IMG/VR virus record: IMGVR_UViG_3300025115_000006 | Span: 3,920-67,919 of that record | Strand: one strand, 5' to 3' | Length of the DNA: 64,000 nucleotides | Origin: a virus | Shown here: positions 2,978 to 63,086 of the stretch, in pieces | How positions within the stretch are numbered: the first letter of the stretch is position 1 | Layout: each line of letters opens with the position of its first letter | Translations under genes and position numbers: made by a program | Notes under the pieces: generated by a model | Seen by the model: the letters and a program-made list of their open reading frames with translations, nothing else | Databases searched by the model: none | What the model was told of the DNA's origin: nothing

Positions 2978-5900
2978 TTATGATTTTTTATTCTGTTTTC
3001 TGCATATTCTTTTATTTCTACTTTCCAAAAAGTTCGATGTGATGCATCTCTTTATTTTTTTCATGATAGATTTTTCATCCTCATTATTTAAATCATAGGT
3101 TGATTGTTGTCTCTTACAATATACAATTAATTGTTTATTGTCAGCATCAACTCTTCTGGAAATCCACTCCTCTAGAAGTTTCATTTGCTTTTGAGTTAAA
3201 CTGCTGTCTATAACAATCTTGCATCTATTCTCACTAAATGTTCTTCCGGTGTTTAGTGTGATAAAATTTAAATCTTCAACACAATAATTGTAGGGTCCAA
3301 TGAAAGAAAACTCATAGAACTCAGATAAAGAATAATAAAATACCGCCTCTAGAAATTCACCGTGTGTGTCATACTCAGTTGCATTTAATATGCTTCCATT
3401 TGGAGTTATTAGAATAACAGGAGTATCATAATAAATTGCGTCACTGTCAATATAAGAAATATCATCTTTGTCTGATAACTTTTCAACAGCGTCTAGAACA
3501 TCCTGCTCAGTTGGAAGTTTATATTCTTCATTTACTTCATTTATTTTATTTTCAACAACATTTGAGGTCTTATTTTTACTATAATATGATTTAATTTGTT
3601 GAATAATCTTATATCCAGTCCAGTTTCCTATCTGCTCCTCAAGACTTGTATAAGCACATGCACCTTCATATAAACTGAACACTTTATAGAATGTGTATTT
3701 TCTAGAAACTAAATCATATATTTCAGCCTTGCAGTATGAGACAGCATCTAGATATGTATCAATTATTCTCTCTAACTGTGCATATTGTTTTTGTGTAGGT
3801 TCTTTATATAGTCTTATACAAGTATCTTCTTCAAGATGAGTGCTTGAGAACTCAGCATATTCCATCTTCTGTAACTCAGGGTCCTCTCCATGATACTCCT
3901 GTAAATAGATGAGACTTCCATCATCTGTTACATATCCTGCAGTTTGAAGTTCAACACTTTCTTTAATAGTTTTATCTGCTTCAGTTAATTCATTGTTTAT
4001 TTGTTCAATCTTACTTATATCTGCCTGAGTGTATATAATCTGATACTCATCTTTGTATACAATTTTTTTAGGATGAACAATGAATTTTGTTAGATTATAT
4101 CCTAAAATTTCAAGGTCATATTTTATGTCATTAATAAACCCTTTAAATTTATTGTAACCAAATTCTGTAAAAGCACTTCTATAAATGTTTTTACCATATT
4201 TATCTCCAAATAAATTAACATTAGGAACAGGAAGTTCTTTTTCAATTTCATAAAAGGCTTCATCAAGGTCATTAATTACATCTTCTATTTCTGTGCCTAA
4301 ATATTTATCTTTTATATAACCTTGTTTATCTTTATATTTCTTTATAACACTATCTATTGACTGAAATAGTGAGCCAAATGTTTCTATTTCAAATCTGTAA
4401 AAAATGTCATCAGTCTCAATTTCAACCTCAACATCCTCTTCATCTTCTTCAGGCTCTTCTTTTTCAAGAGTTTTCTCAAGTTCTTTTATTTGAGTTCTAT
4501 ACTCATCATTAGTTAACACACCATCATTCCATTTTTTTATAACATCACTTATCTTTTTATGAACATCATCATTTGACTCTGTTAGTTTGACATTTGATAT
4601 TTTCTTTATTTCAATTATATCATCTTTTGAGTAATGTGTCAATCTTACTTCTGGAACAAGATATGCACTTCCATCTTCTGTAACATCAAATCTAAGTTGT
4701 TTATTTAAAGTCTTTTCAACCTCTAAAACATCATACTCTGCTAATATAGGTCTTATGTTTTCATTAATGTGTAATAAAACAACATAGAAGTAATCTGTTT
4801 CAAATTGATTGTTAATGTAAGTTGCAATATCATGATAATCTTCAAGTGAATATTCACTCAAAGGAAATGTGAAGATTGACTTCTTTCCAGACCATCTCAT
4901 TCCAGTGTTCATTGGTGTTATTTTATTGTTTTTCTGAAGAGCATTATATTCATTTTTGTTTATGAATCTAACATGAGTTGACTGTATATCTGTCTTACTC
5001 TCTTTAATGTTCATAACACTTGTTAATTGATAACCGTTTTTAGTAGTGTTTAGTTTATATATGTTAGTCACATCCTTTATTGTATACATAGATAGTCCAT
5101 ACTCAGTGACCTCCATTGTTGCTTCCCAATAATCATTAGGGTCTTCATAGTCTTCTTTTGATACATATACGTCACTATAAATACCTACACCTTTTTTAAC
5201 AGTATTTCTAGGAACTTCAATAACTACAACATAATCCTCAGAAACAATACCTGTCATAAATCTAGTTGCTTCATTTGCAATATAATCATTGTCTTTATAC
5301 TCAAGAAAAAATAAGTTCTTACCCTTTAATGTTGTATTGCCTTTTGCTGAATTATAAGCAATAATAGGCTTGCCTTGACTTAAAAGTTCGTATTCTCTTT
5401 GACCAATGAATCTAAAAAGTTTAATTGTATCTAATGTAGACGACTCCTTAAGTTTACCTGCGTGAGTTGCTTTTTTATTTGATTTACTCTCTATGGTATT
5501 CATATCATCTTGATGTGTAAGAATGTGATACAGTTCATTTTGACTTAAAAGATTATCACAGTAATCTCTTGCAAACTCCTCAACAACTTCTTCCTCATCT
5601 AATTCATCTAATTCAAAGACATCATTTAGATACTGAAATAGCCCGTGACCAACTTCATGAGCAATAGTTGACTTGATATCCATTCTTAAATCATCACCAT
5701 TTGCTTTTATAGACTGTTTATTTAAAGCAATAGGAAAAACACTTGCATCATCTTGAAGACTGTTTAAAAACATTCCTACACTGTCATTTTTAAATTCATA
5801 GTCTTTGACATATTCTGTCTCAAAGCCAAATCTATATAGGAATTTGTTTATTTCATTAAACTCATTTTCAACAACTGTTGTGAATCTATCTTTTTTTGAT

Positions 5901-8150: not shown

Positions 8151-10982
8151 TTATTTCACATCAAAAAAATAGTGAATATCATTATTAGTATTGTATATAA
8201 TTCCAATTTTTTGTTTTTCATTAACGGCTGTTATAACCTCTTTTTCAAGTGCCTGTTTTGGTAATTTTCTATCTCCACTATATAAATTCTTCTCATCAAG
8301 ATATAAACAAGAATCAAAAATAACCTGAGACATGTCTGTTGCATCCCATAAATTGTCAGTATCTACTGTATTTATACAGTTACCAAAATAATACCAAGAT
8401 GAATATTTTTTACTGCATACTTCTAAGTTGTCTATATTCATACCACTGTCCACAGGTATACTCATTTTTAGAAAGTCTTTATTTATATTACTTTCCTCTA
8501 ATCTGCCAGTTGCATAGTATCTTTTTATCTTCTTTATAATGTCTTCTGGAAAGTTTTCTTCTGAATAGTAAACCTTTCTATTTGCCTGTGAGCCACGCCA
8601 ATCTAAAACATATATCTTAGAATGATTAATAAAATAATATTCAAGCCATCTTAAAAGAGAATCAAATTGTTTTGAGTTAGGTCTTACTTCGGGCATGACC
8701 ATATACTCTTCAAAACCTGTGTTCACTCTAATGCAGTTGTGATTAAGATAATAACTTCCTCTGAATTGTTGAACATGTTTACCAATATAGCCGTCAACAT
8801 CTAAATGCTGTGCCTTACCACTAAAACTTTCTCCACCACTCATTCCATTTATATCAACATTTGCTTCCCATATCTTTAGAAATGAGCCGTCTCTCATGAT
8901 ATAACTAGGACCATCAACAGGTTCTGAACTTGTTCCAAGGTCTTTCATAACTCTTTTCTCAATCTCATCTCTTGTTAATACTTGGTCTGCTTGTTCTGAT
9001 TCATTTATATATCTCTCTTCTAATATATCTACAACCGAACTAAATGGAATAATTCCATGATACTCATATGTGTGAGGAATATTATCATCATCTAAAACTA
9101 CATTTGAATCAATTTTTAATTTATTAGGTTCAAGTTTGCTGACATCTATCTTTAACACAATTATATTTTCAGCATACTTATCATAGTCAGCAACATCATC
9201 TAGCCACTCGGCAGTTTCCGCATAACTATAGGCAACATCCTTATCATCCGCTAAATAAACAACTCCTCTTACAGAGTCAGTCCACATTTTTCTTTTTGTG
9301 TTTCCTAAACCTTTTTCTTTAATTGACTTTAAAAATGGTTTGTAGGTAGCATGATATAAATATTTATAATTTTTATCTTCTGATTCATTTATATAATCTA
9401 TATAGCCTATTTGATTTTCATCTTCAAAAACAATGTTTACATTATTTCTATTTATTTCTGTTTTAACTAATGACCAGTCACCTTCATTTAAAAGTTTACT
9501 AATTCTATTAAATTTATCAAAATTTCTTTTCACAAATTCATTAGAAAAGGCAAATTTAACATCATCACCTAACCACTTCTCAGGAACTACATGTTGTTGC
9601 ATCAGGTCATCAATAATGTTTTCTAATTCATCGTCATTATCTTCATCATCTTCATTATCATAAATGTATTTCCAAACGGGTGAAAAAAGACCGCCCAAAT
9701 CATCTCCAAAAGCATCTTTAGTTGTAAATCTATAAAAAATATTATTTGTGCTTAATGATTTCTCATTTATATTTTTACTGTTTGTAGGTTTCTTATTGTC
9801 TATTGATTTTATATCATTTGCATTAAAGACACCAAATGTAATGTGACCAAGTTCAATGCACTTCAATCCATCATAACCTTTTTTAACTACTAGATTCTTG
9901 AATTGATTGCTTCTAGTCAGAACATGTATTTTCATCTTATAGCCATTTCTAGGCTCATCATATTCTTCTGCAACTTCTTCAATCATTGCTCTCATCTCTT
10001 TCTCATCTGCGTTTAGTGATTTTAAAATGTCTTTAAACACAGGGGAAAAGTCATAGGGCATGATTGGTCTAAGAGTGAATATATTTTCATCAGTAGAGCC
10101 ACAATCAAGCACCCTAGAGCAACCTAGATAGCATTGGTATTGATGCCCACCATTACGGTCCTTATTAGTCCAATTACCATACTCTTTTGCATAGTCTTTA
10201 CTAACTGAAAACCAATTTATTTGAGAAGTAAATTCCTCTTTATCAAACTTCTTATGAGTTCCATGATAAACAACCAATAATCTATTTTCATCATCTCTAA
10301 CTTGACTGTTTTTGAAGAATTCAATTTGTTCATTGGTTAGTTTATTTCCTTGACTATCTACATTTTCTGATGATGCATCTTCATCAAGTCTATTTAAATT
10401 ATGCATTGCTTCAATGTTACTTAGTTTCATTTTTTGCATCATACTTGATTCAACCAATCTTCCTGTTTGATAGTAATTCTTTATGATATATATTATATCA
10501 TCTGATGTCTTGTTTGTCAAGGAGAAATATTTATATTGTGACTTTTGATGAGGCTCTAATATCATTAAATCAGAACTCCATCTCCACATAACATGTCTTC
10601 CCCAAAACTTATCAAGTAAGTTTAAAAGAGCCTTATATTGTCTTGATGTAGGCTCAACTTTAGAAAGCATAATAAAACCTTCAGTGTCAAGATTTACTCT
10701 GATGCACCCAAGGTCTTCAATTGGAGGGCATCCTCCTGTGTAAGTGTCAGATTCATGTTCTACATATTCATTCTTTATAAGCCAATGTAGCACACTTGCA
10801 TGTGAGTTATGTCCTAATGCAAGAATTTTTCCAGAAGGAAAAACATAACTCCTTGAAGATGGCTCATCACTAATTGTGTATCTTTGTGATAGAACCTTCT
10901 CAAAGTCATTTATGTTTGTTAGTATTTTTGTAGAATCAGATTCAACAAGAAGAGAGGACTTGTCTAACTTTATTTTTGACAT
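8151..10982 (-). CDS. polyvalent protein with ART-PolyVal-like and KptA/Tpt1-like ADP-ribosyltransferase-fold domains
   Basis: VVYHGT...WFS...YAKEYG...GYDG; YLYHAT...SIKEKGL...VYLA...VLKID; two copies of the repeated YI..G/CIRVN domain; GGAGG RBS. Confidence 0.75.
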   Translation of the reverse strand: MSKIKLDKSSLLVESDSTKILTNINDFEKVLSQRYTISDEPSSRSYVFPSGKILALGHNSHASVLHWLIKNEYVEHESDTYTGGCPPIEDLGCIRVNLDTEGFIMLSKVEPTSRQYKALLNLLDKFWGRHVMWRWSSDLMILEPHQKSQYKYFSLTNKTSDDIIYIIKNYYQTGRLVESSMMQKMKLSNIEAMHNLNRLDEDASSENVDSQGNKLTNEQIEFFKNSQVRDDENRLLVVYHGTHKKFDKEEFTSQINWFSVSKDYAKEYGNWTNKDRNGGHQYQCYLGCSRVLDCGSTDENIFTLRPIMPYDFSPVFKDILKSLNADEKEMRAMIEEVAEEYDEPRNGYKMKIHVLTRSNQFKNLVVKKGYDGLKCIELGHITFGVFNANDIKSIDNKKPTNSKNINEKSLSTNNIFYRFTTKDAFGDDLGGLFSPVWKYIYDNEDDEDNDDELENIIDDLMQQHVVPEKWLGDDVKFAFSNEFVKRNFDKFNRISKLLNEGDWSLVKTEINRNNVNIVFEDENQIGYIDYINESEDKNYKYLYHATYKPFLKSIKEKGLGNTKRKMWTDSVRGVVYLADDKDVAYSYAETAEWLDDVADYDKYAENIIVLKIDVSKLEPNKLKIDSNVVLDDDNIPHTYEYHGIIPFSSVVDILEERYINESEQADQVLTRDEIEKRVMKDLGTSSEPVDGPSYIMRDGSFLKIWEANVDINGMSGGESFSGKAQHLDVDGYIGKHVQQFRGSYYLNHNCIRVNTGFEEYMVMPEVRPNSKQFDSLLRWLEYYFINHSKIYVLDWRGSQANRKVYYSEENFPEDIIKKIKRYYATGRLEESNINKDFLKMSIPVDSGMNIDNLEVCSKKYSSWYYFGNCINTVDTDNLWDATDMSQVIFDSCLYLDEKNLYSGDRKLPKQALEKEVITAVNEKQKIGIIYNTNNDIHYFFDVK

Positions 10983-33116: not shown

Positions 33117-33423
33117 AATATTTACCTCTTTTCTTCTACAGTATAATTATAGCACATATCAAATAAAAAATCAACTACTTTTGATTGATTTCTTTAAAAT
33201 CAACCATTTTTAATTGATTCTCAACTTTCAATCTGTTTGAGTTGATTGTGATGTCATTTGATTCATTTTGCAACTTTTCACTATCTACCCTATATATATT
33301 AGGGCATCTAATATTGAGACCTAATTATATATCTATTGACTAGATGTGATATTAAAAGGTATATATAGGTTTATGAGGTTTTATAGTCGACTTCTTCATG
33401 TAGATTTTTAGTATATTTTTAGG

Positions 33424-33620
33424 TGTAATTTTTTGCACAGTAGACGATACATATCTAGATAGGACTATTTGAATTTATCTTTCAAATCTAGATAAGGTTA
33501 TTGTAATTTTTTGCAGAGTAGATTTGCACAGTAGAAGGTGCATATCTAGATAGGACTTTTTGGATTTATCTTTCAATGCACAGTTTCAATGCACAGTAAG
33601 TAAGACATATCTAGATAAGA
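33424..33620. repeat. iteron-like direct repeats in long non-coding region (candidate origin)
   Basis: TGCACAGT x4, palindrome ATCTAGAT x4, a roughly 50-nt unit present twice. Confidence 0.6.
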
Positions 33621-33843
33621 TTATTTAGATTTAAGAGTGTCTTAGAGAAATGAAAATTATTTAGTGGTAAAACACAAATTTAGCAGTTTTAGCAGTTATC
33701 TAGTTATAATCTCATTACAGACACTTTAAAACTCAATCCTATGCTGTTTATTCTTTGTTTGGCAGACTTTTAAGTGTTTCTGATATAAAGTAACTGACTC
33801 ACATTAAAAACCAGCCTAAACAGTTTTTTGACACTATTAATTG

Positions 33844-34423: not shown

Positions 34424-34696
34424 TCATTTGTTTTCTACCTTTTTCAATTGAATATAGCCTTTCTCCAAGTTGGTAAACTCTTCAACAATCTGCAGTTTTT
34501 CTTTGCTTTCAATGTAGATGAAATCATCTCCCGTTTCAAAATAAAAATCATCCGACATAGATAGCATATAATTCAATTCACTTAGATAAAGAGGCATATT
34601 TTTAATGATTCTTTCAAATGTCTCATCAGATACTTCTTCTTCAGGATAAAGTTTTAAAATCTCTTGAAGTAATCTAGTTATTTGATTTGCTGTCAT
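34424..34696 (-). CDS. hypothetical protein
   Basis: 90 aa, ATGA overlap. Confidence 0.6.
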   Translation of the reverse strand: MTANQITRLLQEILKLYPEEEVSDETFERIIKNMPLYLSELNYMLSMSDDFYFETGDDFIYIESKEKLQIVEEFTNLEKGYIQLKKVENK

Positions 34697-35070
34697 TTTA
34701 TTTTTCCTTGATGAGTGTTTCCAATAACTTCAAATTCATTCCAATCACAATATGAAGAGAAGCCTCCAAATTCGTCCATACAAATTGCCATGTCTTGATA
34801 ATACTCAACATGAGCAATCCAGTTACCTTCATTTGTCAGAACAATATCTCCTTCAAAAATTTTAATATTGTTTTTGTCTTTAACTCCAATGTGCTGTTCA
34901 ACAATCCAATCATTGTTAATAACAACTTCATCAAATGAATACTTAATACTCTCATCTGATTCACAGACAAAAAATAGATGATTATCAATCTCTCTCATCA
35001 CAAACTTTCTTGGCTGATTCTTTTGTCTTTCAATTTCATATTTCTGCCATGCTCTGAATTCATATTTCAT
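34693..35070 (-). CDS. YopX family protein
   Basis: MKYEFRAW...EQHIGVKDKN..KIFEGDIV...FEVIGN. Confidence 0.85.
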   Translation of the reverse strand: MKYEFRAWQKYEIERQKNQPRKFVMREIDNHLFFVCESDESIKYSFDEVVINNDWIVEQHIGVKDKNNIKIFEGDIVLTNEGNWIAHVEYYQDMAICMDEFGGFSSYCDWNEFEVIGNTHQGKIK

Positions 35071-35083
35071 TGTATATTTCCTC

Positions 35084-35380
35084 CTATATACTGTCTACAT
35101 TATAGTAGTGAAAATATTTTCCTTTATACTTAAACACAAACTCTAGATAAGAATCATAACCACCATCATAGTTGGTTGAAATAGAATCATTTCTAAGCAC
35201 CTTAACTTCCAGCAAAGGAAATGGCTGATGACCTACATTGTGATATAGGTCTAGGTCTTTGATATATCTAATCTCATAACCATTTATAATTAGTTTACGA
35301 TATTCTTCTTCTGAGACCACTTCAATTGAATCATTTTCAAATTCAAATAGTTCTTCTAGAAATCTCTCTGTTTTACTCAT
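35084..35380 (-). CDS. hypothetical protein
   Basis: 98 aa ORF, coupled to upstream gene. Confidence 0.6.
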   Translation of the reverse strand: MSKTERFLEELFEFENDSIEVVSEEEYRKLIINGYEIRYIKDLDLYHNVGHQPFPLLEVKVLRNDSISTNYDGGYDSYLEFVFKYKGKYFHYYNVDSI

Positions 35381-36270
35381 TCTAGTTTATCTCCAAATGT
35401 GTCATACAATACACCATTATCAATTACAAGCACATTGCAGAAGTAGATATATCTTTCTTGATATTTTCTTACACCGCCATCAAGACCAATGATTCCTTTG
35501 CTGAAGTATATATCTGTTCGATTTGAATAATTATCATTTAAATGTTTGTAAAAGTCATCTGTGTTCCAATGACCTACAACAAGAGTTTTTCCTTTTTTCT
35601 CTTCTTCAGAGAATAGACCTGCTTGATACATGGCCCAAGGGTTACCCCATCTAGCATCTTTCCACACTTCTTTTGAAGTTTCTCTCCAATTAGGATTATA
35701 CTCATACACATCATTATAAGTCAAAGTCTCTACTGTCTTGTCATAGTCTTTAACAGTTAATGGAATAAACGCATGAGTCAAGATTAAATTATCTAATTCA
35801 TAATACTCAATCCACTCATCCGATTCAAGCCAACTAACAACTTCTTTTACTCTTTTATGATTTACAATTTTTCTCCACAATTTATTGACCGCTGAAACTT
35901 TATCAAGGTCTTCTTCAATTGCAAATAAAAAGTATTCCTCAAAAAACATTTCCATTTTTGTTTTTGGTGTCTCTGATAGTTGAAGCATAGTATCTACAGT
36001 GCCGTTGTGAATGTCATGTTTACTGGGTCTTTCTTTCTTAACTGCTTCAAGAATTAACTGTTCATGATTTCCTTTAATTAAGATTCTTCTCTCTTTAGGA
36101 ATTTCTCTAATGAACTCATACATCTTTATTGCATCTGGACCACGGTCAAACAAGTCACCATTGACAATCAATGTGTGTGACTCATTATTTTTAGAATAAC
36201 CTGCCTGCAGTAGTGATGATACCATATCAAAATAAAAACTGTGAACATCTGAAACTACAAAATATTTCAT
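35377..36270 (-). CDS. calcineurin-like metallophosphoesterase
   Basis: SDVH, GDLFDRG, GNHE, THA, VGHW, GLDGG. Confidence 0.9.
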   Translation of the reverse strand: MKYFVVSDVHSFYFDMVSSLLQAGYSKNNESHTLIVNGDLFDRGPDAIKMYEFIREIPKERRILIKGNHEQLILEAVKKERPSKHDIHNGTVDTMLQLSETPKTKMEMFFEEYFLFAIEEDLDKVSAVNKLWRKIVNHKRVKEVVSWLESDEWIEYYELDNLILTHAFIPLTVKDYDKTVETLTYNDVYEYNPNWRETSKEVWKDARWGNPWAMYQAGLFSEEEKKGKTLVVGHWNTDDFYKHLNDNYSNRTDIYFSKGIIGLDGGVRKYQERYIYFCNVLVIDNGVLYDTFGDKLE

Positions 36271-36506
36271 TTACATCTCCTTCTTACCAACTTAGGTATC
36301 TTTCAATAAAACTATTTTCATTCTCCTCAGATACAGCAAAGTGGTAGTCAATTACTTCGTTGTCTACTTTGTCAATTACTGCAACTCCAAAATTAATTCC
36401 TTCAATCACTCTTACAATCTTAACAGAGTTTAAATCTTTAACAATCTCATTAGTAATAAGCATGAATACACTTCTCCCTTATATGTCATTATAGTATCAC
36501 ATATAT

Positions 36507-36535
36507 ATTATACAACTTTTTAAACTCTTTGTCAA
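36507..36535 (-). promoter_or_regulatory. sigma-A promoter
   Basis: TTGACA-17-TATAAT. Confidence 0.8.
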
Positions 36536-36536
36536 T

Positions 36537-36730
36537 AAAAAAAGCCACTAATGGGGAATAAAGTGGCTTTAGTTTATCAAGCACATCATCTTATGAAAGG
36601 AAAAGTTAGGTGTGTGCATTATTAGTTAAAAAAACTGTCTGGTTTTACAAAGGGAGGTGTTAAAATATAATTTAGAAAGGAGGAAATTACATGATACACC
36701 AGACAGTTTGAAACCAAATGTAATTATGAT
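36537..36730 (-). ncRNA. putative sRNA with C/U-rich (anti-SD-like) loops ending in an intrinsic terminator
   Basis: 12-bp stem 36632-36643/36698-36709, second stem 36581-36617, terminator stem 36541-36570 plus U-tract; loops carry CCUCCUUUCUA, CACCUCCCUUU, CUUUUCCUUUC and UUCCCC. Confidence 0.5.
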
Positions 36731-36797
36731 TTCACTATATATATACAATATAATTCTATGCACACAACAATAAGATTAATTAATTTATAAAAAATGT

Positions 36798-36870
36798 TGT
36801 CTCATCTTGGAGTTGAACCAAGGTCTACACCTCTACAGAGGCTTCTCTATACCCATTAAGATAATGAGAC
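36798..36870 (-). pseudogene. degenerate tRNA (Tyr-GTA-like)
   Basis: GTCTCAT/ATGAGAC acceptor, T-loop TTCAACT, anticodon loop only 6 nt (CTGTAG), ends ACA not CCA. Confidence 0.55.
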
Positions 36871-36873
36871 ATA

Positions 36874-36961
36874 TGGCGGAAAGTGTAGGATTTGAACCTA
36901 CGCACCATTTAAGGCCTAGCACGTTAGCAGTGTGCCCTCTTAACCACTTGAGTAACTTTCC
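36874..36961 (-). tRNA. tRNA-Ser(GCT)
   Basis: cloverleaf, long variable arm, loop CT-GCT-AA, GCCA end. Confidence 0.92.
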
Positions 36962-37128
36962 GAATTGTTCAGTTTTATAGGTGTCCACCACCGACCATAA
37001 GGTCCTCATATAGAGGTCAAGTTTTACGATACCTGCCATCGCTCAAGAAATTTATTCTGAGATGATTGGATTTCAATGCTGAACGTCACTATGCAATTTA
37101 ATAGGCATTGCATCAACCTTAAATCATT

Positions 37129-37213
37129 TGGTGGCTCTAGAGAGACTTGAACTCTCAAGCATTTCTGCATCAGTTTCTAAGACTGACATGTTTACCAGTT
37201 TCATCACAGAGCC
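37129..37213 (-). tRNA. tRNA-Leu(TAG)
   Basis: TCAGT-CTTAGAA-ACTGA, variable arm, ACCA end. Confidence 0.92.
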
Positions 37214-37220
37214 ATTCGCG

Positions 37221-37277
37221 GGCTAACATGTGGAATCGAACCACTAGTGTGCACCTTCCGCCAGGAGATAGTTAGCC
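37221..37277 (-). ncRNA. tRNA-like RNA lacking an anticodon arm
   Basis: 7-bp GGCTAAC/GTTAGCC stem, T-arm GTGG-TTCGATT-CCAC, 57 nt. Confidence 0.5.
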
Positions 37278-37283
37278 ATATTA

Positions 37284-37360
37284 TGGTGGACCCTGCAGGA
37301 CTTGAACCTACAACTTACCGCTTATGAGGCGGTGACTCTAACCAATTAAGTTAAGGGTCC
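37284..37360 (-). tRNA. tRNA(CAT), probably Ile2 (lysidine type)
   Basis: ACCGC-CTCATAA-GCGGT; GGACCCT acceptor resembles Bacillota Ile2. Confidence 0.88.
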
Positions 37361-37375
37361 ATAATACTGTTATTT

Positions 37376-38020
37376 TTATTTGCTGTTCTTTATTCTATTG
37401 TAAGCATCTTCAATAGCCTTATCTAAGTTAATATTTAAATGAAGAGACATAATAACTAATGCAACATAAATATCACCAAGACGTTCTGGAATAATTTCTT
37501 TGTTATTTCTAGACACACAACTTGATAATTTTCCTACTTCTTCCATCAGTGTAACCATTTGTTTACTAGCATCAAATTTATTAAGACCTTGCTCAATTGC
37601 CCATTTCTCAATATTTTTTCTTATAGATGCAATAACTGGTTCATTGTTAACATATAATGTATTATCACTTATATCAACAGTGGTCCATGTTCCTGTTGAT
37701 GCTAGTGCTGAACCTGAGACAAATGCTGTGCCTGTAATGGAACCATTTACAGTTATGGTCTGAGTTTCACTTAAAACTTTATCAGTGTCAATTTTATTAG
37801 TTGGTTCTGAGACAACTTTAATTTTTGATTTACCATTTTGTGTAGACATAGAGTATCTAGTTCCACACTTACCACATGTATAATCAGTTGTGTGAATATT
37901 AGGGTCATTGTTTACATAATTACCCTTTTCATCATAATAAGCACTCCAGCCCATGCAGGTTGAAGTTGACATACCAATGTGTGCAGATAGACTTCCGCAT
38001 TTAGGACATTTTCTTTCCAT
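37376..38020 (-). CDS. Zn-ribbon + MazG-like domain protein
   Basis: CPKCG...CGKCG; C-terminal LMEEVGKL...LGDIYVAL (partly degenerate MazG motif). Confidence 0.65.
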   Translation of the reverse strand: MERKCPKCGSLSAHIGMSTSTCMGWSAYYDEKGNYVNNDPNIHTTDYTCGKCGTRYSMSTQNGKSKIKVVSEPTNKIDTDKVLSETQTITVNGSITGTAFVSGSALASTGTWTTVDISDNTLYVNNEPVIASIRKNIEKWAIEQGLNKFDASKQMVTLMEEVGKLSSCVSRNNKEIIPERLGDIYVALVIMSLHLNINLDKAIEDAYNRIKNSK

Positions 38021-38021
38021 A

Positions 38022-38249
38022 TTATTCCTCTTTCTTTGTTATTTGAATATCAGTGTATGTATCATCACTGCCATAATTTTCACGAGATTTACTTTTCATT
38101 AGTTCAAGCAATTCTTCAACAGTCATAGTTGAATCAACTTCAATACTATCGCTAAAATCAAAACGAGTTGGTGTGTCAATAATCTCTTCTTCCCAACCAT
38201 ATTCAACATCTGTATAGTTGTATGAAAATGACACAATAAATTTAGACAT
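38022..38249 (-). CDS. hypothetical protein
   Basis: 75 aa, AAGGAG RBS. Confidence 0.6.
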   Translation of the reverse strand: MSKFIVSFSYNYTDVEYGWEEEIIDTPTRFDFSDSIEVDSTMTVEELLELMKSKSRENYGSDDTYTDIQITKKEE

Positions 38250-38280
38250 ATCTTATCTCCTTAAGGAAGTTAATTTCAAT

Positions 38281-38647
38281 TGGTGGACCTGAGGGGAATT
38301 GAACCCCTGTCTTAACACACTTATTCTCAACATCTACATTTTGTCTCATCTAAGTTTTTATGCAATCACAATGAGAGATGATTACATAGATTTAGTTTCT
38401 GTGTTTTGCAGATGCTTTGAAACTAGAAAGTCAGCATCTGCTAGTCCAGTTCTGACGAAGAGTGCTGTTACTAGACATCACAGGTCTTCGGAGTTCATAG
38501 TTTTTCTAACTAATACTGTCCGCCGATTAGGCTAAGACAGTTTGAACTCTACTAAATAGAGATTTAGCGTTTATTGTTTTTGTGGTTTAAGGTGACCAAC
38601 CAATGCAGTTGAGAGTAACATATGCCAATCGAACCCAAAACAGGCCC
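38281..38647 (-). ncRNA. ssrA: tmRNA
   Basis: GGGCCTG/CAGGTCC acceptor with G3.U70, T-arm, CCA; resume after AATAAAC, tag AKSLFSRVQTVLA* (38568-38527). Confidence 0.93.
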
Positions 38648-38680
38648 ATATATTTAGAGCCTCACTGAGACTCTACTAAT

Positions 38681-38709
38681 ATTATACACTTTAATTAGTG
38701 ATTTGTCAA
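38681..38709 (-). promoter_or_regulatory. sigma-A promoter of tmRNA
   Basis: TTGACA-17-TATAAT, 34 nt upstream of tmRNA. Confidence 0.8.
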
Positions 38710-38712
38710 CAG

Positions 38713-39105
38713 TTATTTTGGAAATAACACAACATCAATTTCAACAATCTTATGCTCTTCAGAATAGTTAGCATCTTTGATTTGAAAGTTTTGGTCACTA
38801 TTCATTAATTCTTCAGGTGTGACCTCTTCATTTGTCTTAAGATTGATAATGAAATTATTTGTTCCAAAAACAAAGAATCTGAATTTATAGCCCTCAAATT
38901 GTTTTACAAGAGATTCAAGTAAATTTCTATTCTCTGTTACAATTTTCTCAATGTCAACTTCAACACTGTCTTCTTGTAGAAGTTCATCTACAGTTGCTTC
39001 AGCATCATCTTCTTCAATTTCAAGACCTTCAAGTCTCATCTGTTCTCTGTCATTTGATTCATCTTCACGCATTTCTTCAAGTCTTTTTAATTCTCTGTCT
39101 GTCAT
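38713..39105 (-). CDS. acidic hypothetical protein
   Basis: likely start MTDREL at 39105 with GGAGG RBS. Confidence 0.65.
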   Translation of the reverse strand: MTDRELKRLEEMREDESNDREQMRLEGLEIEEDDAEATVDELLQEDSVEVDIEKIVTENRNLLESLVKQFEGYKFRFFVFGTNNFIINLKTNEEVTPEELMNSDQNFQIKDANYSEEHKIVEIDVVLFPK

Positions 39106-42900: not shown

Positions 42901-45254
42901 ACCATGTGAGCCGTGCCACATAGGTGATTTTTCATAATGAGGCTCTGAGCCACAGATAGGACACTTTAAAGTTTTCATTTGACTTCCTTTCCATGATGAA
43001 AGACTTTAACAATATTAAATAAGTCATATGATTTTTTCTGCAAGTCTATTGCCTCATCAAGTGTTTCAAACTCATTTAGTTGCATAGGATACACATCATC
43101 ATAATAACCAATAACTTTATATGTTGAATCAACAACTTCACTATCAAGTTCTTCATTCAGTTCTTCTTGCTTATCTAGACTGAAACTCTCTATAAAATTA
43201 TATTCATCTTTAGTTAAAGGTTCATTCATAATCTTTTCTTCTGCTTTGATTGGATTGTATGGTTTCATTTTACTTCCTCTACTAAAGACACTTCTTGAAT
43301 ATTGAAACCATATTCAATATCATCATTTTCATAATGGTCCTCACCAGCATACATCTCAGAATTATTTTTCTTAAACTTAACACCACGTGACTCATTCATA
43401 TAATTGATGAGTGCTTTTTTTGTTTTGAAGATTTTATAATTAGAAAATGTCCAATTAGTGTAGTATGAGCCACATTCTGCAATATAGAATTTATTTTTCA
43501 TTTCATTTCCTCCAAATACTCTAAATATTCAGGTATAATAGCAATTGCTTCTTTACCCACCTCATAGACTGTAACTGTTTTGTCATGAAGATAAATGATA
43601 ATTCTTTGCTCATCTTTACTGAACTTATGAGAGAAGTCCATGTTGGCCCAGTCTACATCTACAGTCAGTTCAAATCCTAGTTCAATCAATCTATCATGAG
43701 GTGATGTATATGGCTTAAGATGCTCGTATTTAAAAGGTAATTCTTGAGCGTATTGTTTAAATACTATCCATGTATATATATTATCTAGAGCATTAATTAC
43801 TCCAACTCCTAGTGGTGTGATTACTGTCACAATTACTCCAAGAATCAAACTCTCTGAGAGCCTTAGACAACATTTCAACTCTATCATGACCTTCAATATC
43901 ATGAGCATGAACATTATCTTTTGTGACATAATATTCTAACATGTAGCGAAGAAATGTCACAAACAAATACAGGCCATCATAATCAAAAGGAGTAGATTGC
44001 TTTACTTGATTCATGAGCATCTTTCGATACTTCTTAACAATTCTATTATACAACTTATTCTTTCTCAAGTCAAGGACCTCTTTCCTGAATAAGTAAATTG
44101 GCGATACTATCAGTGTAACATCATTCAATTTACTTTAGCAACTCAATTTACTTGGTTTTTACTTATTTCTGAAAATCTTTCATTTTGTTACAACACATGT
44201 TTGAACTCAATAATGAATAAAGTGATGAATGATATGCCACCTACTACTGCAGGTATAATCATTGTTTTATGAGGAAAGAATATAAACTCTGTAATGAATC
44301 CTAATGTATTATACATGACCACATAATTTATAATTGCTATAGATACAGATGATGCTATGATTAATTCATTGTTTCATCATATAAATGATTCTGCTTATCT
44401 TATCTACTGCAATGTCATAAGGTGTTCTTTTAACTCTTAGATAATGCCAGCCTGCATATTTCATTAAGAACTTGAATTGTTTTCTACTGAGTCTTCTCTT
44501 AGGAAGTAAATCAAAGTTCAAAGTCTCTTGCCAGAACTTCTCAGCATCTGCACAATCTTCACATAGAGGACTATTTGGCTCATGACTCATATTGTCTTGA
44601 TATATTTCATTGATGTCTCTATGACAAACACTACATTGTATTTTCATATGACTAACTCTCTTTTGGTAATCCAGGTGTTCTATTATGACTTGTAATGTCG
44701 TCAACATTTGTAGATGAGTCAATACTTGTGATTGAATAAATATCACCTATCTTAGGTTGTATTGTTAGTGATTCACCACAATTGAAAACAACAAGACAGT
44801 AATTTTCATGTAAGTTATATTGAAGAATATGAATAGACCAATCAGGATGATTTTTAAGGTCCTGATTTATCTGCTCATCAATGCCCATGTCTTTAGTTTT
44901 TTGTCTGAAGTCACCAATCTTTTTCTGATAGGTTTTTACATATTGTTTCATAGTCTAGCCTCTTATAACTACTTTTTTACCAAAAATGGACTGTAATTTC
45001 TCACCATGTTGCCAATAGTGCCTAAGATAACCTTTTGACAGTTCATACATTGCACCTGAGATACCTTCAACATCTGCAATATCTGAAAGATTTTCAACTG
45101 ATTTCTTTGTTAGTTTGCCACCATCTTCAAGTTCTGCTTCCATTAGATTAGCCCATCTAATCATGAAACTTAAAGCACCACTAGAGTAAGGGTCTTTGCT
45201 GTTTGATTCAATAAATTTTTCCCAATCTTTTTCAAGTCCAGTTTTTACTATCAT
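39993..45254 (-). other. cluster of about 17 small, tightly packed hypothetical early ORFs
   Basis: ORFs 39993-40211, 40233-40511, 40514-40888, 40885-41154, 41211-41561, 41558-41770, 41767-42096, 42069-42260, 42273-42563, 42574-42978, 42975-43268, 43265-43501, 43498-43929, 43793-44128, 44366-44746, 44652-44951, 44955-45254; many ATGA overlaps and AGGAG RBSs. Confidence 0.65.
42574..42978 (-). CDS. Lar-like (restriction alleviation) Zn-finger protein
   Basis: LKCPICG...CPTC...AIKNWN pattern. Confidence 0.55.
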   Translation of the reverse strand: MKTLKCPICGSEPHYEKSPMWHGSHGYHDCYRHDFTCPTCKLLESGADDVSRVEEKTSYDQAIKNWNDKVKKVSKFLKNKEKDKVEEQKMIDRFQWIQTPDGTYILIDTWNDKVVEGAPTYTTSSTNSSDSLKK

Positions 45255-48491: not shown

Positions 48492-48722
48492 CTACTTCTT
48501 AGAAGACTTGAGTGCAAGAATTCTTGCTCGTTTGGACTTTTCTCTTCGTTTGTCAGAATTTCTAACAAAGTATTGTTTTCTTCTGACTTCATCAAGAATG
48601 CTCTCTTCATTGACAGCCTTCTTAAATCTGCGAAGCATTGAATCAACAGACTCAGTTAACTTACCTGATGCTCTGGCATCTGATTCAAACTTGTTTACTA
48701 CAACTTTCGCCACACTTTTCAC
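48492..48722 (-). CDS. rpsU: 30S ribosomal protein bS21
   Basis: ESVDSMLRRFKK......ILDEVRRKQYFVRNSDKRREK..RAR matches the S21 signature. Confidence 0.85.
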   Translation of the reverse strand: MKSVAKVVVNKFESDARASGKLTESVDSMLRRFKKAVNEESILDEVRRKQYFVRNSDKRREKSKRARILALKSSKK

Positions 48723-50616: not shown

Positions 50617-51810
50617 TCAATCTTCACTTGCTTTAAAGTTGTATACAGGCTTGATAAGTTTTTCAATTACAACAGTGTCATCAATGTAATCAATGATGTC
50701 TTCAATGTTTTTATATGCCCTTGGGCTCTCATCAATTGTTGACTGATTGGCAGTTGTAGTGTAAATGCCTTTCATATCTTCTGTGAAGTCTTTGACAGTT
50801 AGAGTTGACTTTGCCTGACTTCTAGACATCAATCTACCGGCACCATGAGGAGCAGAGTAGTTCCAATCAGCATTGCCTTTACCTCTGCCTAAGATGCAAC
50901 CATCTTGCATGTTGATAGGAATAATGACTCTTTGATTCTCATGAGCAGAGATTGCACCTTTACGAACAATGTTACTGTCATCAATATAGTTGTGAACAGA
51001 TTCAAACTCATCAACAACTTTCCAGTCCATCGCATCAATAATATTACTAGCAATGTATTTTCTATTAAGAGATGCGAACTCTTGACACAATCTCATGTCA
51101 TGTAGGTAGTTATCTCTATCTTGATTTTCTAGATAAGAAAGGTCCTTAGGAACTTTGATAGATGGAGTCAACGCTCTTAATGCATCAGGAATATCTCTCT
51201 GTTTTCCTTGTGCTTTTAATTTAGCAACAACTTCTTGTCTATCTTCCACACGCACTGAAGAAATATTTTTTATTGCAATGTCTTGATAGATTTCTGCAAC
51301 TTGTTTACCTAAGTTTCTTGAGCCTGTATGAATAATTAAATACTTTTCACCGTCATCGTCTTGGTCAATCTCAATAAAGTGATTTCCGCCTCCAAGAGAT
51401 GCAATACCAAATATCAATCTGTTGTAGTTATTTAACTTCTTAAAGCATCTCATTTGATTGACAATTCTCTCAGCATCTTCTTTTGCGTGCCAGTTTAGTC
51501 TTTCATTGATGTTGTGTCCACTAGGAATATATAACTTAATAAACTTGTCAAGTTTTTCATAATCAATATCAATGTTGCCTAGATGAACTACACAAACACC
51601 ACAGCCAATATCAACTCCAACAACATTTGGAATAACCTTTTGACCAAGGTCTGCTGTAAAACCAATCACACAACCGGCACCTGCATGAACATCAGGCATA
51701 ATTCTAACCTTAGCATCAGAAAACGCTTCCTGTTCTAGAAGAGTGTAGACTTGATTAACTGCCTTTTGGTCAAGTGTGGCTTGATTAGCGAATATTTTTA
51801 AATCTCTCAT
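50617..51810 (-). CDS. rtcB: RtcB family RNA ligase
   Basis: MPDVHAG.G, VGVDIGCG, LGGGNHFIE, HTGSR, HNY, RKGA, SAPHGAGR, DESP.AYK. Confidence 0.95.
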   Translation of the reverse strand: MRDLKIFANQATLDQKAVNQVYTLLEQEAFSDAKVRIMPDVHAGAGCVIGFTADLGQKVIPNVVGVDIGCGVCVVHLGNIDIDYEKLDKFIKLYIPSGHNINERLNWHAKEDAERIVNQMRCFKKLNNYNRLIFGIASLGGGNHFIEIDQDDDGEKYLIIHTGSRNLGKQVAEIYQDIAIKNISSVRVEDRQEVVAKLKAQGKQRDIPDALRALTPSIKVPKDLSYLENQDRDNYLHDMRLCQEFASLNRKYIASNIIDAMDWKVVDEFESVHNYIDDSNIVRKGAISAHENQRVIIPINMQDGCILGRGKGNADWNYSAPHGAGRLMSRSQAKSTLTVKDFTEDMKGIYTTTANQSTIDESPRAYKNIEDIIDYIDDTVVIEKLIKPVYNFKASED

Positions 51811-53542: not shown

Positions 53543-55003
53543 CTACTGAATACGAACTGAGTCATACATTGGGTCATTAAGTGTCTCAAGCATCAATTCA
53601 TAGGCTGAAAATTCAACGCCTTTGATGAGAGATTTAAATGCAGATGCAGATTGACCTGAAATAAACTGAACACCTTTTTGACTTACTTGTGCATGAAAAG
53701 TATCTTGACGAGCATCAACATTCCAGAACACTACAGTTGGAAGTTCATAACCAGCATTTGCATACTTAGTTGTGAGATGGTCAAAATAAGTTGTTCTTGA
53801 ACTTCCATTTGCTGAATCAAACTCCATGTCAGAGATGATAATCAATGACTTAGGCAAATCTGATTGTGCAAGTTTATTGTCAACTGCAACCTTCAAAATT
53901 AAATTGAAGGCAGCCTCAATGTTTGTGCTTTGATTCCAATTGGCACACATTGTCTCAGAAACATTGTCTCTTAAAGTTTTACCTTTAAGTGTAACAAACT
54001 CAGGATTGGTTGAGAATGTCATGAACTTGTTTTGATAAGGACCATGATTTCTCTGAGCAAAGTAGATAGCAAGACCAACAGATGTTGCCATAGGTCTTCC
54101 AGTCATTGAGCCGGAGACATCTGCCATAACCATGAAGTTGTTTTCACCTTCAACATAGTTAGGAAGAGCCTTCCATTGTGCTTCAATGGTTCTGTCATCA
54201 TTGACACCATTCATGTATTTTTCAACAAGGTCATAAGGATAAAGAGTTGTTGCTTTGATTGCAACTTCTCCACTCTCAACCTTTGTCAAGAAAGCATTGA
54301 ATCTTTCTTCATCATGAAGTCTAAATGCATTGTGATAGTTGCTCATTGCCTTAGAAGGAACAGTAACATAGTTAATTGTTTCCCAAGCATTCTTTGACAT
54401 GAAGACTTCAGTAACACCAAGTGCTTTTCTAATAGCAGTTAATGATTTACGATATTGTCTTTCACCAATTTCAAAATACTTAGCAGTCAAGAGACCAAGA
54501 TTACGAGTTTCTAAAGAATGAGAGTTTGCAGACTTCAACCATTTTCCAAGAAGAGAGATAGGACGACCTTGTTCTAGTCCAAACAAATCTGCACGAAATT
54601 GAGCATTCATATAATTGAATGCAAGTGCTTCAATACTTGTTTCAACAAACGCATAGAAATCATCCCAACGACCAAACTTAGCAATGTTATCAAAGTTAAT
54701 AACAACATGAGCAGAATTTCTTTCTGCAATCCATCTAAGAATTGTTTTGAAAACTTTTCTTTCACCTAGACCACCACGAATGTTACGAGCATAGAAAAGC
54801 ATCTTCAATGCAAGTAGATTGTCTTCATTGTAAGCCTTCATGAAAGTCTGCTCAACATCTTCATCTGACCTACTTCTTAATGCACCAATAGTGCCAAAAA
54901 GGTCAAGTAGAGAATCTCTAGTTGATTTTAGTGCATCAGCACCATTCTCAGTGAACTTCCAATTTGTTTCAGTTGTCATTCCATTCAAAAATTTATTTTC
55001 CAT
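53543..55003 (-). CDS. DUF2828 / TROVE(Ro60)-like protein with C-terminal vWA domain
   Basis: TENGA..ST..LLDLF, RNIRGGLGER, GRWDD, LLGKW, VPSKAM, MIDAS DVSGSM, STN, ISDMEFD, VFWNV. Confidence 0.85.
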   Translation of the reverse strand: MENKFLNGMTTETNWKFTENGADALKSTRDSLLDLFGTIGALRSRSDEDVEQTFMKAYNEDNLLALKMLFYARNIRGGLGERKVFKTILRWIAERNSAHVVINFDNIAKFGRWDDFYAFVETSIEALAFNYMNAQFRADLFGLEQGRPISLLGKWLKSANSHSLETRNLGLLTAKYFEIGERQYRKSLTAIRKALGVTEVFMSKNAWETINYVTVPSKAMSNYHNAFRLHDEERFNAFLTKVESGEVAIKATTLYPYDLVEKYMNGVNDDRTIEAQWKALPNYVEGENNFMVMADVSGSMTGRPMATSVGLAIYFAQRNHGPYQNKFMTFSTNPEFVTLKGKTLRDNVSETMCANWNQSTNIEAAFNLILKVAVDNKLAQSDLPKSLIIISDMEFDSANGSSRTTYFDHLTTKYANAGYELPTVVFWNVDARQDTFHAQVSQKGVQFISGQSASAFKSLIKGVEFSAYELMLETLNDPMYDSVRIQ

Positions 55004-55015
55004 AAAATTTCCTTT

Positions 55016-55386
55016 CTAGACCCGCATTATTATCTCTTCAAATAGATTTTTTTGTTTGCTGTATGGGTCTCTTTATGGTTTTAATTTAATTAGATTACTA
55101 GACTCTATGAAGTTAAACAAAGTGAGACATTTCTGAATCTGAATTCTCCTTAAAGAAAATTCTACATTTAATATTCGCTGTAGTTGATTGCTATAAGAGT
55201 CTACCTTTTGAATCACTTATCTTATTTTATTTTTAATCAATTTACTAGACCCACTGTTTTTTTATCTACCTATAAGATTATTTTGAGATTGCTGTAGGGG
55301 TCTAAAATTTTCTATCTTGAATGTTAAATGTCTAGACTCACTTCAAATTTTATCAGAAATTGTATGTGTGATTGCTGTTGGAGTCT
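55016..55386 (-). repeat. array of four hairpin units AGACYC-nn-AYAGCAA...GRGTCTAG
   Basis: units at 55332-55386, 55245-55303, 55098-55202 and 55016-55070; compensatory AGACCC/GGGTCT vs AGACTC/GAGTCT stems. Confidence 0.85.
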
Positions 55387-55450
55387 ATTTTAACGCTTCT
55401 GCTATATGTATACAACTAATTTTTTTCTTGGTGACATTTTTTAAATAGTT

Positions 55451-62396: not shown

Positions 62397-63086
62397 TTAA
62401 TTCTTAGGTTCTTCAGATTCAGTCTTTTGTTCATTGTTCAACTTTTCCAATTGAACCTCTCCTTTTGCGACTGCATTAATAAATTTAGCACCATCTGAAA
62501 TCTTTTTCAAGTCGGGGTCATTCTCAATTTCTTTGTTGAGTTTTTTATATTTACGCTTTAAGAACTTCATATACTCTTTAAGTAGTTCTTGCTTCTCTTC
62601 ATCAGTTGCTGATTCAAACTCAGGAAGAATCTCAAGACCAAAATCAGAAATTAACACACCATCAAGCATGTCAACTTGTTGTTGAAAGATTTCGGCTGCC
62701 AGACCTTCAAACTTGTTTGATTCCGGTCTTCCATCACCTCTCTGATAAACAGCATAGATGACCTCACTTCTTGGAACAATAAACTCTCTATCAGGAATGC
62801 TTGGACTCTTTTCACGAACAAATTTGAATCCTTCAGTTTTTGTAATAACAGGATTAATAAATGCTCTCACATCACCATTAAAGTTGATGCAGAAAACTCT
62901 ATCAAATCTTTCAATCTGTGATGCAGATAAAGATGTAATATTAAGACTCTTGTTTGCTCTGATGGTGTCCTTCAAGTCACGAATTGTTTGAGCGGTCTTG
63001 GTATAATCAGTTCTCATATTTATCTCATCAGAACGCTGAGATAGTTTCTGAATGTCTTGTGATATTTCAAATCCATAATATGTCAT
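62397..63086 (-). CDS. peptide deformylase-fold protein with degenerate active site
   Basis: PDF architecture (FINPVI, SIP...VPR...I) but SLSASQI / EKSPS / QQQVDMLDG replace GLAAxQ / EGCLS / HExDHLxG. Confidence 0.75.
   Translation of the reverse strand: MTYYGFEISQDIQKLSQRSDEINMRTDYTKTAQTIRDLKDTIRANKSLNITSLSASQIERFDRVFCINFNGDVRAFINPVITKTEGFKFVREKSPSIPDREFIVPRSEVIYAVYQRGDGRPESNKFEGLAAEIFQQQVDMLDGVLISDFGLEILPEFESATDEEKQELLKEYMKFLKRKYKKLNKEIENDPDLKKISDGAKFINAVAKGEVQLEKLNNEQKTESEEPKN

Follow-up and report, generated by a model that had tools for sequence, protein, structure and literature searches.

A predicted structured RNA behind a phage tRNA operon carries two tracts that resemble the 3' tail of 16S rRNA

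What does a phage gain from a short gene-free stretch placed between the last transfer RNA (tRNA) gene of one operon and the promoter of the next? The question is raised by a 67.9-kb virus record (IMG/VR record IMGVR_UViG_3300025115_000006), judged to be about 40% complete, of which 64 kb (positions 3,920 to 67,919; G+C about 32%) were analysed and are called the window here. All of the about 88 plausible open reading frames (ORFs) of the window, all 11 tRNA genes and the transfer-messenger RNA (tmRNA) gene lie on its minus strand. An earlier note, made from the letters alone, had proposed for positions 36537-36730 a phage small RNA (sRNA) whose loops imitate the 3' end of 16S ribosomal RNA (rRNA). 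Judged from the sequence, the minus strand at 36537-36734 is a gene-free structured RNA unit of about 170-260 nucleotides (nt), which displays copies of the anti-Shine-Dalgarno (anti-SD) sequence. The unit is predicted to be structured, gene-free, oriented with the genes and under selection, and it probably interferes with translation or tunes it. Tentatively, it can be read as an sRNA that is cut from the 3' trailer of the tRNA operon and pairs with Shine-Dalgarno (SD) sites.

The predicted fold is the starting point for this reading. The minus strand folds with -44.6 kcal/mol, compared with -26.6 +/- 3.4 kcal/mol in 200 shuffled sequences, none of which equalled it (z -5.3), and the plus strand of the unit reaches only z -1.8, with 10 of 200 shuffles as good. 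The ORF list of the window has no substantial ORF inside the unit. The four C-rich motifs of the RNA are mostly single-stranded in the minus-strand prediction, with mean probabilities of being unpaired of 1.00, 0.81, 0.94 and 0.99. From the 5' to the 3' end of the RNA, its parts are the following:

36709-36734, minus strand: 5' hairpin of 8 bp (36734-36727 with 36716-36709; UGAAAUCA/UGGUUUCA)
36628-36708, minus strand: core, made of a closing stem followed by U7 (36634-36628) and enclosing both motifs that resemble the 16S tail
36708-36698 with 36643-36633, minus strand: closing stem of the core, 11 bp in the minimum free energy (MFE) fold, with 12 complementary bases (AAACUGUCUGGU/ACCAGACAGUUU)
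36665-36692, minus strand: AU-rich sub-hairpin within the core, 9 bp (36692-36684 with 36673-36665)
36649-36659, minus strand: second motif, CACCUCCCUUU, mostly unpaired in an internal single-stranded region of the core (mean probability of being unpaired 0.81)
36581-36617, minus strand: hairpin 2, with the pyrimidine-rich loop UAACUUUUCCUUUCAUAAG, which contains UUUUCCUUUC
36537-36570, minus strand: terminator-like hairpin of 9 bp (36570-36562 with 36549-36541), with a 12-nt loop UUAUUCCCCAUU (containing UUCCCC), then U7

The 10-nt loop of the sub-hairpin (36683-36674) is exactly CCUCCUUUCU, and all 10 of its bases are unpaired with a probability of 1.00. The last hairpin (36570-36541, then U7) has the G+C-containing stem and the U-run of an intrinsic terminator on the transcribed strand; the long stem 36708-36633 likewise ends in U7, and the core may thus act as a first terminator. 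Neither of these U-tailed hairpins was listed by a simple terminator scan, which was restricted to loops of at most 8 nt. Four unpaired SD-complementary tracts (0.81-1.00) together with a U-tailed 9-bp hairpin at the 3' end are also the structural marks of sRNAs with C-rich, anti-SD loops. The description given in the earlier note, a non-coding structured minus-strand unit with unpaired anti-SD-like sequences and a terminator, is thus upheld by the fold, and the loop sequences that it read on the minus strand agree with direct reading and with the MFE fold. Two details change: the last of its three successive hairpins is indeed a terminator hairpin with U7, but the helical units number four, and the perfect 12-bp stem exists as 12 complementary bases, of which the MFE fold pairs 11.

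How close are the tracts to the ribosome's own sequence? The Bacillota 16S tail is presumed here to finish with CU(A). As given in PMC10783764, the anti-SD sequence of Bacillus subtilis, CACCUCCUUU, occupies positions -12 to -3 relative to the 3' end of its 16S rRNA, and the classes of Bacillota have ACCUCCUUU. Because they match these sequences, the two main tracts appear to be copies of the Bacillota 16S 3' tail, the second with one extra C, which bears out the match claimed in the earlier note. A host among the Bacillota is likely, because the capsid protein and the phosphatase encoded next to the unit show kinship with phages of Gram-positive genera (by capsid protein, the cultured phages that come closest, at 27-34% identity, are large myoviruses that infect Bacillus, Listeria and Streptococcus, and the phosphatase is 25% identical to those of Enterococcus phages) and because most genes of the window have AAGGAG-type ribosome-binding sites.

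Plus-strand GGAGG occurs 8 times in the 64 kb, and two of these copies lie in the unit, 26 nt apart; AGAAAGGAGG and GGAGGTG are each found once in the window, both in the unit, and the 10-mer of the sub-hairpin loop is likewise unique there. The 200 nt of the unit contain five of the 23 C-rich motifs that the minus strand has in the window, and their minus-strand GC skew (-0.32, against a window mean of +0.18), the most strongly reversed in the window, belongs to the lowest 0.25% of 200-nt windows. When pairs of CCTCC 10-60 nt apart on the same strand and outside ORFs are counted, the unit is the only case in the window. Such an intergenic pair is absent from 672 kb of DNA from 80 related phage loci, whose selection was based on a neighbouring protein, independently of the motif; the 21 pairs that do occur there are all coding, 19 of them antisense.

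Is the unit maintained by selection? Relatives with a phosphatase at 81-88% identity were found in Logan assemblies only, and the contigs that cover the unit come from four DNA metagenome runs of four studies (a bioreactor, two wastewaters and manure) and represent two haplotypes (X2-X4 and X5). In these near relatives, the phosphatase gene part differs at 28-29 of 311 nt and the stretch 36437-36990 at 18 of 554 positions, while the core (36629-36712) has one listed substitution in 84 nt, at 36652, plus a lengthening of U7 to U8 (Fisher p 0.009 against the coding part); the spacer between the tRNA and the unit, with 4 changes in 53 nt, evolves at the coding rate. Eight substitutions are listed in 36537-36730, five at unpaired positions and three in helices, where pairing is kept or improved: in the 5' hairpin of X2-X4, G36714-U36729 becomes A-U; in the terminator hairpin, A36569-U36542 becomes G-U; and in hairpin 2, the change of C36610 to U turns a C.A mismatch into U-A. 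Read on the plus strand, the changes at 36714 and 36569 would be C.A mismatches, so these two fit the minus strand only. Both changes in the terminator loop are unpaired, and one of them extends the C-run. In X2-X4 the third C of CCC in the second motif is replaced by A (CACCUCCC to CACCUCCA), leaving CACCUCC intact, and X5 has insertions in the loop of the 5' hairpin. The 59-aa ORF that follows the next promoter (36284-36463, minus strand) is not a conserved gene: X2-X4 have lost 126 nt of it in frame and X5 has 3 nt in its place, and the unit is retained in both. Among the 10 runs with the stretch no RNA sequencing run is listed, which is neutral with regard to expression.

How could such an RNA be made? 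The elements that frame it are, from upstream to downstream:

38681-38709, minus strand: promoter upstream of the tmRNA gene, a perfect TTGACA-17-TATAAT (12 of 12 in the consensus scan)
38281-38647, minus strand: tmRNA gene (Rfam, 115.6 bits; tag peptide AKSLFSRVQTVLA), head of the operon that ends in the unit
36798-36870, minus strand: last tRNA gene (Rfam RF00005, 45.1 bits), not called by ARAGORN, with no CCA encoded
36732-36747, minus strand: weak promoter-like site TTGTATATATATAGTG, below the 9-of-12 threshold of the consensus scan and with no listed change in relatives
36507-36535, minus strand: promoter of the next operon, a perfect TTGACA-17-TATAAT (12 of 12), directly past the terminator; it is the downstream boundary and lies outside the RNA

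The tmRNA gene is followed by two ORFs and four tRNA genes, the last of which ends at 36798, and then by the RNA unit. ARAGORN calls ten tRNAs and the tmRNA in the window, and Rfam adds the tRNA at 36798-36870, whose anticodon loop CUGUAGA is read as GUA/Tyr and whose 3' end is likely the 5' boundary of the trailer RNA. No U-tailed hairpin was found between this tRNA and the unit (36735-36797), so the unit should be transcribed as the 3' trailer of the operon, and the promoter at 38681-38709 is the likely source of a transcript that runs through the tRNAs into it. The TTGTATA promoter-like site of the earlier note does exist, but it scores under the scan threshold and would be a weak promoter of the unit's own; a weaker start near 36740 is possible. 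Because the unit lies directly behind the last tRNA of an operon with a perfect promoter and its own promoter is weak, co-transcription as a trailer is at least as likely as transcription from its own promoter. With the last tRNA on one side and the operon terminator on the other, all on the same strand, the unit has the position of a tRNA 3' external transcribed spacer (3'ETS), a layout which recurs in a distant counterpart (G010, described below).

Two side observations concern the same operons. In each of the four metagenome runs, numerous contigs with no other likeness to the window match the promoter stretch at 36499-36543 alone (about 36-40 nt), and TTGTATAATA has 4 exact copies and TTGTATATTA two in the window, all on its minus strand; the stretch is probably a multi-copy phage promoter consensus. 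Further upstream, the gap of 167 nt between tRNA-Leu and tRNA-Ser (36962-37128, minus strand) has neither a tRNA nor an Rfam call and could harbour another small RNA or a decayed tRNA; the relative X5 skips 36889-37300.

In the mechanism that we propose, most of the RNA would come from the tmRNA/tRNA operon, as a 3' trailer that excision of the last tRNA sets free, and its own weak promoter near 36740 may contribute further transcripts. Its end would be either the U-tailed long hairpin or the terminator 90 nt beyond. The product would be a G-poor, C-rich RNA with four unpaired pyrimidine tracts, two of which repeat the 16S anti-SD sequence, one as a full hairpin loop (CCUCCUUUCU) and the other in an internal loop (CACCUCC). 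These tracts would pair with GGAG-type ribosome-binding sites of host mRNAs, phage mRNAs or both, and exclude 30S subunits from them; with two copies, the RNA could grip a single mRNA in two places or engage two mRNAs. A comparable use of C-rich regions, which pair with G-rich or SD regions, is described for RsaE/RoxS (PMC6158497, PMC8216469 and PMC5419742). Duplexes predicted between the unit and 83 phage initiation regions rank SD strength only.

Does the unit belong to a known family? In Rfam (36400-36900, E at most 10) only the tRNA passes and the other rows are chance matches, the best of them being Yfr10 (25.7 bits, gathering threshold 43) and sau-19 (19.5 bits, gathering threshold 80), both driven by the terminator; the unit was not assigned to RF01820 (RsaE/RoxS) or to any other Rfam sRNA. 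By blastn, the unit has no match among 50,697 cultured-phage records, and the corresponding units of two distant phages, G007 and G080, have none either. An exact-pattern scan of IMG/VR for the motif pair with its flanks gave no match. A looser motif pair gave at least 120 matches in IMG/VR, and among the 120 listed none has an enclosing stem of more than 9 bp, compared with 12 in the window; with the motif order reversed there were 88, nearly all antisense gene starts or coding sequence, and G007 is the only one of sRNA type. The motif pair combined with an A-run returned three IMG/VR loci, which were set aside as all are real gene starts. In JGI metagenome contigs, the A-run pattern gave 25 matches, none of them related, and blastn of 35300-38750 found nothing. 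A single-query search of IMG/VR with the phosphatase found no relative, and an alignment query gave 80 IMG/VR loci at no more than 44% identity, none with DNA likeness to the unit. The locus L319, with a tRNA-like 3' end, UUCCUCCUUUCUU and a terminator, was dropped as an example: ARAGORN calls no tRNA there and only one motif is free. In the distant cultured relatives identified by capsid protein (Bacillus phage HSE3, Listeria phage LIS04 and Streptococcus phage GXN1), the pattern matches are coding or ambiguous. As a separate observation, an unannotated and almost G-free region with at least 5 CCUCC per 200 nt is present at 70020-70220 of vB_SagM-GXN1, a cultured 176-kb Streptococcus phage (L373 1440-1640, plus strand); it may be an RNA or may be coding on its other strand. 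No phage RNA with an anti-SD mimic emerged from searches of the literature.

Counterparts of the unit are nevertheless seen in large phages whose phosphatases are 39-43% identical. In G010 (156.9 kb), noticed through one weak covariance-model match, the gene strand carries tRNA-Ser, tRNA-Lys, tRNA-Met, about 130 nt, AUCCUCCUUUC, 22 nt, UACCUCCUUUUU, a terminator, a promoter-like site and a gene; its two copies of CCUCCUUU are 22 nt apart, as compared with 21 nt in the window. The unit of G007 (237 kb; z -5.7) has a promoter shared with a neighbouring unit, a 10-bp closing stem and a terminator, and displays ACACCUCCUUAAC in an internal loop and AUCCUCCUUUCUC in the loop of an AU-rich sub-hairpin. 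The unit of G018 is homologous to it (75% over 92 nt, E 1.4e-10), with one of its two CCUCCUU tracts within the stem and one after; its 12-bp closing stem GUAAGCAUAUAU/AUAUAUGCUUAC differs on both strands from GUGAGGCAAU/GUUGUCUCAC of G007. In both of these phages, promoter and terminator frame the CCUCC strand. In a three-way alignment, the TTGTATATATATAGTG site of the window resembles the TTGTATAATAATATGTGAGG promoter and 5' end of the G007 and G018 units, and the window is like G007 around the CCUCCUUUCU module, although in AT-rich sequence this likeness is no proof of common descent. In G080 and G076, a gene-free region of about 950 nt carries three CCUCC tracts on the gene strand behind a perfect promoter. 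Taken together, these cases hint at a wider class that evolves fast in large phages of Bacillota.

Two other elements were seen in passing. Upstream of the anti-SD units of G007 and G018 (L243 1600-1740, minus strand; L345 1380-1500, plus strand) lies a conserved, promoter-led and gene-free 'Unit A' with the core UAUAUAUAGUA, which is probably another phage sRNA. Five IMG/VR contigs of 5-43 kb (L271, L277, L279, L323 and L342) share a conserved hairpin followed on one strand by GGAUCACCUCCUUA, which we take to be the E. coli-type 16S 3' end, and then by AUCCUCCUUUCUU; their other strand has two strong SDs, a 5-codon ORF and a U-tailed terminator, and the element is different from the unit.

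Several points weigh against an SD-pairing sRNA. Little specificity can be expected of a seed with the very anti-SD sequence of the ribosome, and since AAGGAG sites also precede the phage's own genes, broad repression would affect the phage as well. A single-sequence covariance model (R1) gave 6 of 50 related records at E of at most 1, the best at 0.067, and no significant homologue. Since the motif itself was the search key for the counterparts, its presence in them carries no independent weight; independent support comes from the strand, the gene-free or ORF-free setting, the framing by promoter and terminator, the enclosing stems and the stem covariation between G007 and G018. Moreover, the G010 unit is not significantly structured (z -1.3), and pattern counts in the 80 related records, in which most matches are antisense gene starts, equal those of reversed-pattern controls (14 against 15, 8 against 10 and, in a third scan, 7 against 2); the motif pair is not enriched as such, and it is the same-strand, ORF-free cases that stand out. 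The conservation test comprises two haplotypes, and within 36437-36990 each contig of the first has 2-3 unplaced differences and X5 nine; were all of them in the core, it would no longer differ significantly from the coding flank (p 0.26). The check that the earlier note had suggested, conservation of the loops with covariation of the stems, therefore has a divided outcome: the unit is kept in near relatives with changes that are compatible with its structure, and the G007 and G018 stems covary, but the near relatives amount to two haplotypes.

The phage carries further genes that bear on translation. The bS21 protein predicted by the earlier note is present:

48492-48722, minus strand: bS21 (PF01165, E 3.6e-12), immediately downstream of the second tRNA cluster

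Pfam searches of the window proteins also identify the RNA ligase RtcB and a peptide deformylase among the translation-related genes, and a T4-type capsid protein, a portal protein and a prohead protease. Among the other matches, all on the minus strand, are a Tad4-type Thoeris inhibitor and a 943-aa protein with an ART-PolyVal ADP-ribosyltransferase domain; bS21, RtcB, deformylase, Tad4 and ART-PolyVal lie at 48492-48722, 50617-51810, 62397-63086, 44955-45254 and 8151-10982, respectively. A tblastn search with the phage bS21 found no match in cultured phages. Among related phage records, bS21 is present in 10 of 50, including G007 and G018, and is absent from G010, G080 and G076, all of which have such units; its co-occurrence with the RNA units is loose.

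What else could the unit be? One alternative would make it nothing more than the end of the tRNA operon, with two successive intrinsic terminators, a spacer and CCUCC tracts without function. The long hairpin and the last hairpin do both carry U7 on the minus strand, and efficient termination would be needed since a strong promoter follows immediately. A 50-nt loop with a second hairpin is superfluous for a terminator, however, and the loop sequences are the best-kept part in relatives; a terminator also leaves aside the uniqueness of the motif pair in 64 kb and its absence from 672 kb of related DNA, the reversed GC skew across the whole 200 nt, and the unrelated stems that frame the same motif in G007, G018 and G010, so that we regard this explanation as unlikely. 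It is rather improbable that the unit is a protein-binding decoy of the 16S 3' tail, directed at bS21 of phage or host or at a nuclease or toxin which recognises the anti-SD region. This reading has in its favour that the match spans 10 nt of the tail, more than SD pairing requires, that the phage encodes bS21 along with the tmRNA, 11 tRNAs, RtcB and peptide deformylase, that bS21 is also found in G007 and G018, and that bS21 binds the OLE RNA at a CCUCCU stem in which mutations abolish binding (PMC12054373). In OLE, though, the anti-SD strand is paired to an SD-like strand, whereas both tracts are unpaired here and the RNA contains no GGAGG; on the predicted fold the unit is not of the bS21-binding OLE P6 type. 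The units of G010, G080 and G076 occur without a bS21 match, and the bS21-encoding records other than the two carriers (G003, G019, G020, G021, G027, G035, G042 and G047) show no sRNA-type unit in the pattern scans. By analogy, it is conceivable, if a long shot, that the RNA is a stand-in for the 16S 3' tail that captures bS21 or a tail-cutting host nuclease or toxin, and that it forms with G007, G018, G010 and G080 a widespread class of 'ribosome-tail decoys' in large Bacillota phages; the dependence of ribosomes on SD pairing would then be reset during infection, or ribosomes would be shielded.

A role in cis has also been considered, in which CUCCCUU would pair in read-through transcripts with the AAGGGAG site of the next gene, so that only transcripts from the proper promoter are translated. 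Among the 83 initiation regions, the best partner of the second motif is that very gene (36284-36463), with -14.9 kcal/mol (mean -7.9, standard deviation 2.5), and the best partner of the first is YopX (34693-35070) in the same downstream operon. This insulator is nonetheless considered very unlikely, because the partner positions 36652 and 36476 change in relatives without compensation, because the 59-aa ORF is dispensable (shortened by 126 nt in X2-X4 or gone in X5, with the RNA unit retained) and because the ranking of partners was viewed post hoc; the G007 unit, besides, has no gene close downstream. Finally, the plus strand could be the functional one: a TTTACA-16-TATAAT promoter in the loop would yield a short RNA with a 10-nt SD and a six-codon ORF (ATG at 36692, stop at 36710-36712), acting as a micro-peptide gene, as a ribosome or SD sponge, or as a CsrA-type decoy, the last being the GGA-rich sponge that the earlier note had named as its alternative. 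The promoter-like site scores 11 of 12, AGAAAGGAGG stands 7 nt ahead of the ATG, none of these letters is altered in X2-X4, and tracts containing GGA do occupy loops in the predicted plus-strand fold. Yet everything else in the 64 kb, including genes, tRNAs and both U-tailed hairpins, is on the opposite strand; the plus-strand fold is no better than shuffles (z -1.8) and two natural substitutions would break its pairs; no terminator follows, and the RNA would run antisense into the tRNAs; and in G007 and G018 the promoter and terminator belong to the CCUCC strand, with no comparable ATG-led micro-ORF opposite. A plus-strand unit of any of these kinds is accordingly regarded as very unlikely, and the CsrA-type sponge is disfavoured by the strand evidence.

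Two other regions of the minus strand, one gene-free and one gene-poor, were observed in the window. At 33380-33640, within a gene-free region of about 730 nt, there are at least 4 copies of a 'CUAUCUAGAUAUG ... CUACUGUGCA' repeat with reversed GC skew; these repeats resemble iterons, and the region may be an origin or a regulatory region. At 55000-55450, a gene-poor stretch with reversed GC skew, several 'GACUC..ACAGCAAUC' words are paired with GGGUCUAG/GAGUCUAG.

Should the SD-pairing sRNA be confirmed, large phages of Gram-positive hosts would add to their translation toolkit of tRNAs, tmRNA, bS21 and deformylase a diffusible copy of the sequence on which mRNAs dock, and thereby a simple way to mute messages that depend strongly on SD pairing. 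The recurrence of such units with unrelated stems in distant phages points to selection on the displayed motif, and it offers a rule for further searches, namely a pair of CCUCCUU tracts on the same strand, free of genes and framed by a stem and a terminator.

How does the unit compare with known systems? The C-rich hairpin loops of Staphylococcus aureus RNAIII pair with ribosome-binding sites. Like RNAIII and RsaE/RoxS (RF01820), the unit would be an sRNA of Bacillota type that ends in an intrinsic terminator and directs several unpaired C-rich tracts at G-rich or SD regions; it differs from them in having full anti-SD copies (CCUCCUUUCU and CACCUCC) in place of CCCC or UCCC, and in being encoded by a phage, behind tRNA genes. 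In Escherichia coli, a Gram-negative host, 3'ETS-leuZ sponges other sRNAs with Hfq. The unit shares with it the position between the last tRNA of a polycistronic transcript and the operon terminator, from which tRNA processing would release it, whereas the targets of 3'ETS-leuZ are sRNAs and the seed of the unit is an anti-SD copy, with no sign of sRNA partners. The sponge function of 3'ETS-leuZ is described in 10.1101/2021.04.25.441314. With P6 of the OLE RNA (PMC12054373), the unit has in common the exact 16S tail CCUCCU in a non-ribosomal RNA of an organism or phage that makes bS21. The OLE tract, in contrast, is paired in a helix with an SD-like strand, within a ribonucleoprotein with a 600-nt RNA, while the tracts of the unit are predicted to be single-stranded in an RNA of about 200 nt. 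Phage T4 makes the small stable RNAs C and D (species 1 and 2), which are co-transcribed with the phage tRNA cluster, as is proposed for the unit; we know of no anti-SD motif in them. Regulatory RNAs in phages are little charted as yet, and a transcriptome paper (PMC11512511) describes them as 'mostly yet to be explored'. sRNAs whose seeds are C-rich or anti-SD are a well-known type of regulator; the one proposed here is distinguished by being borne by a phage, probably as the trailer of a tRNA operon, and by its two near-complete copies of the 16S tail.

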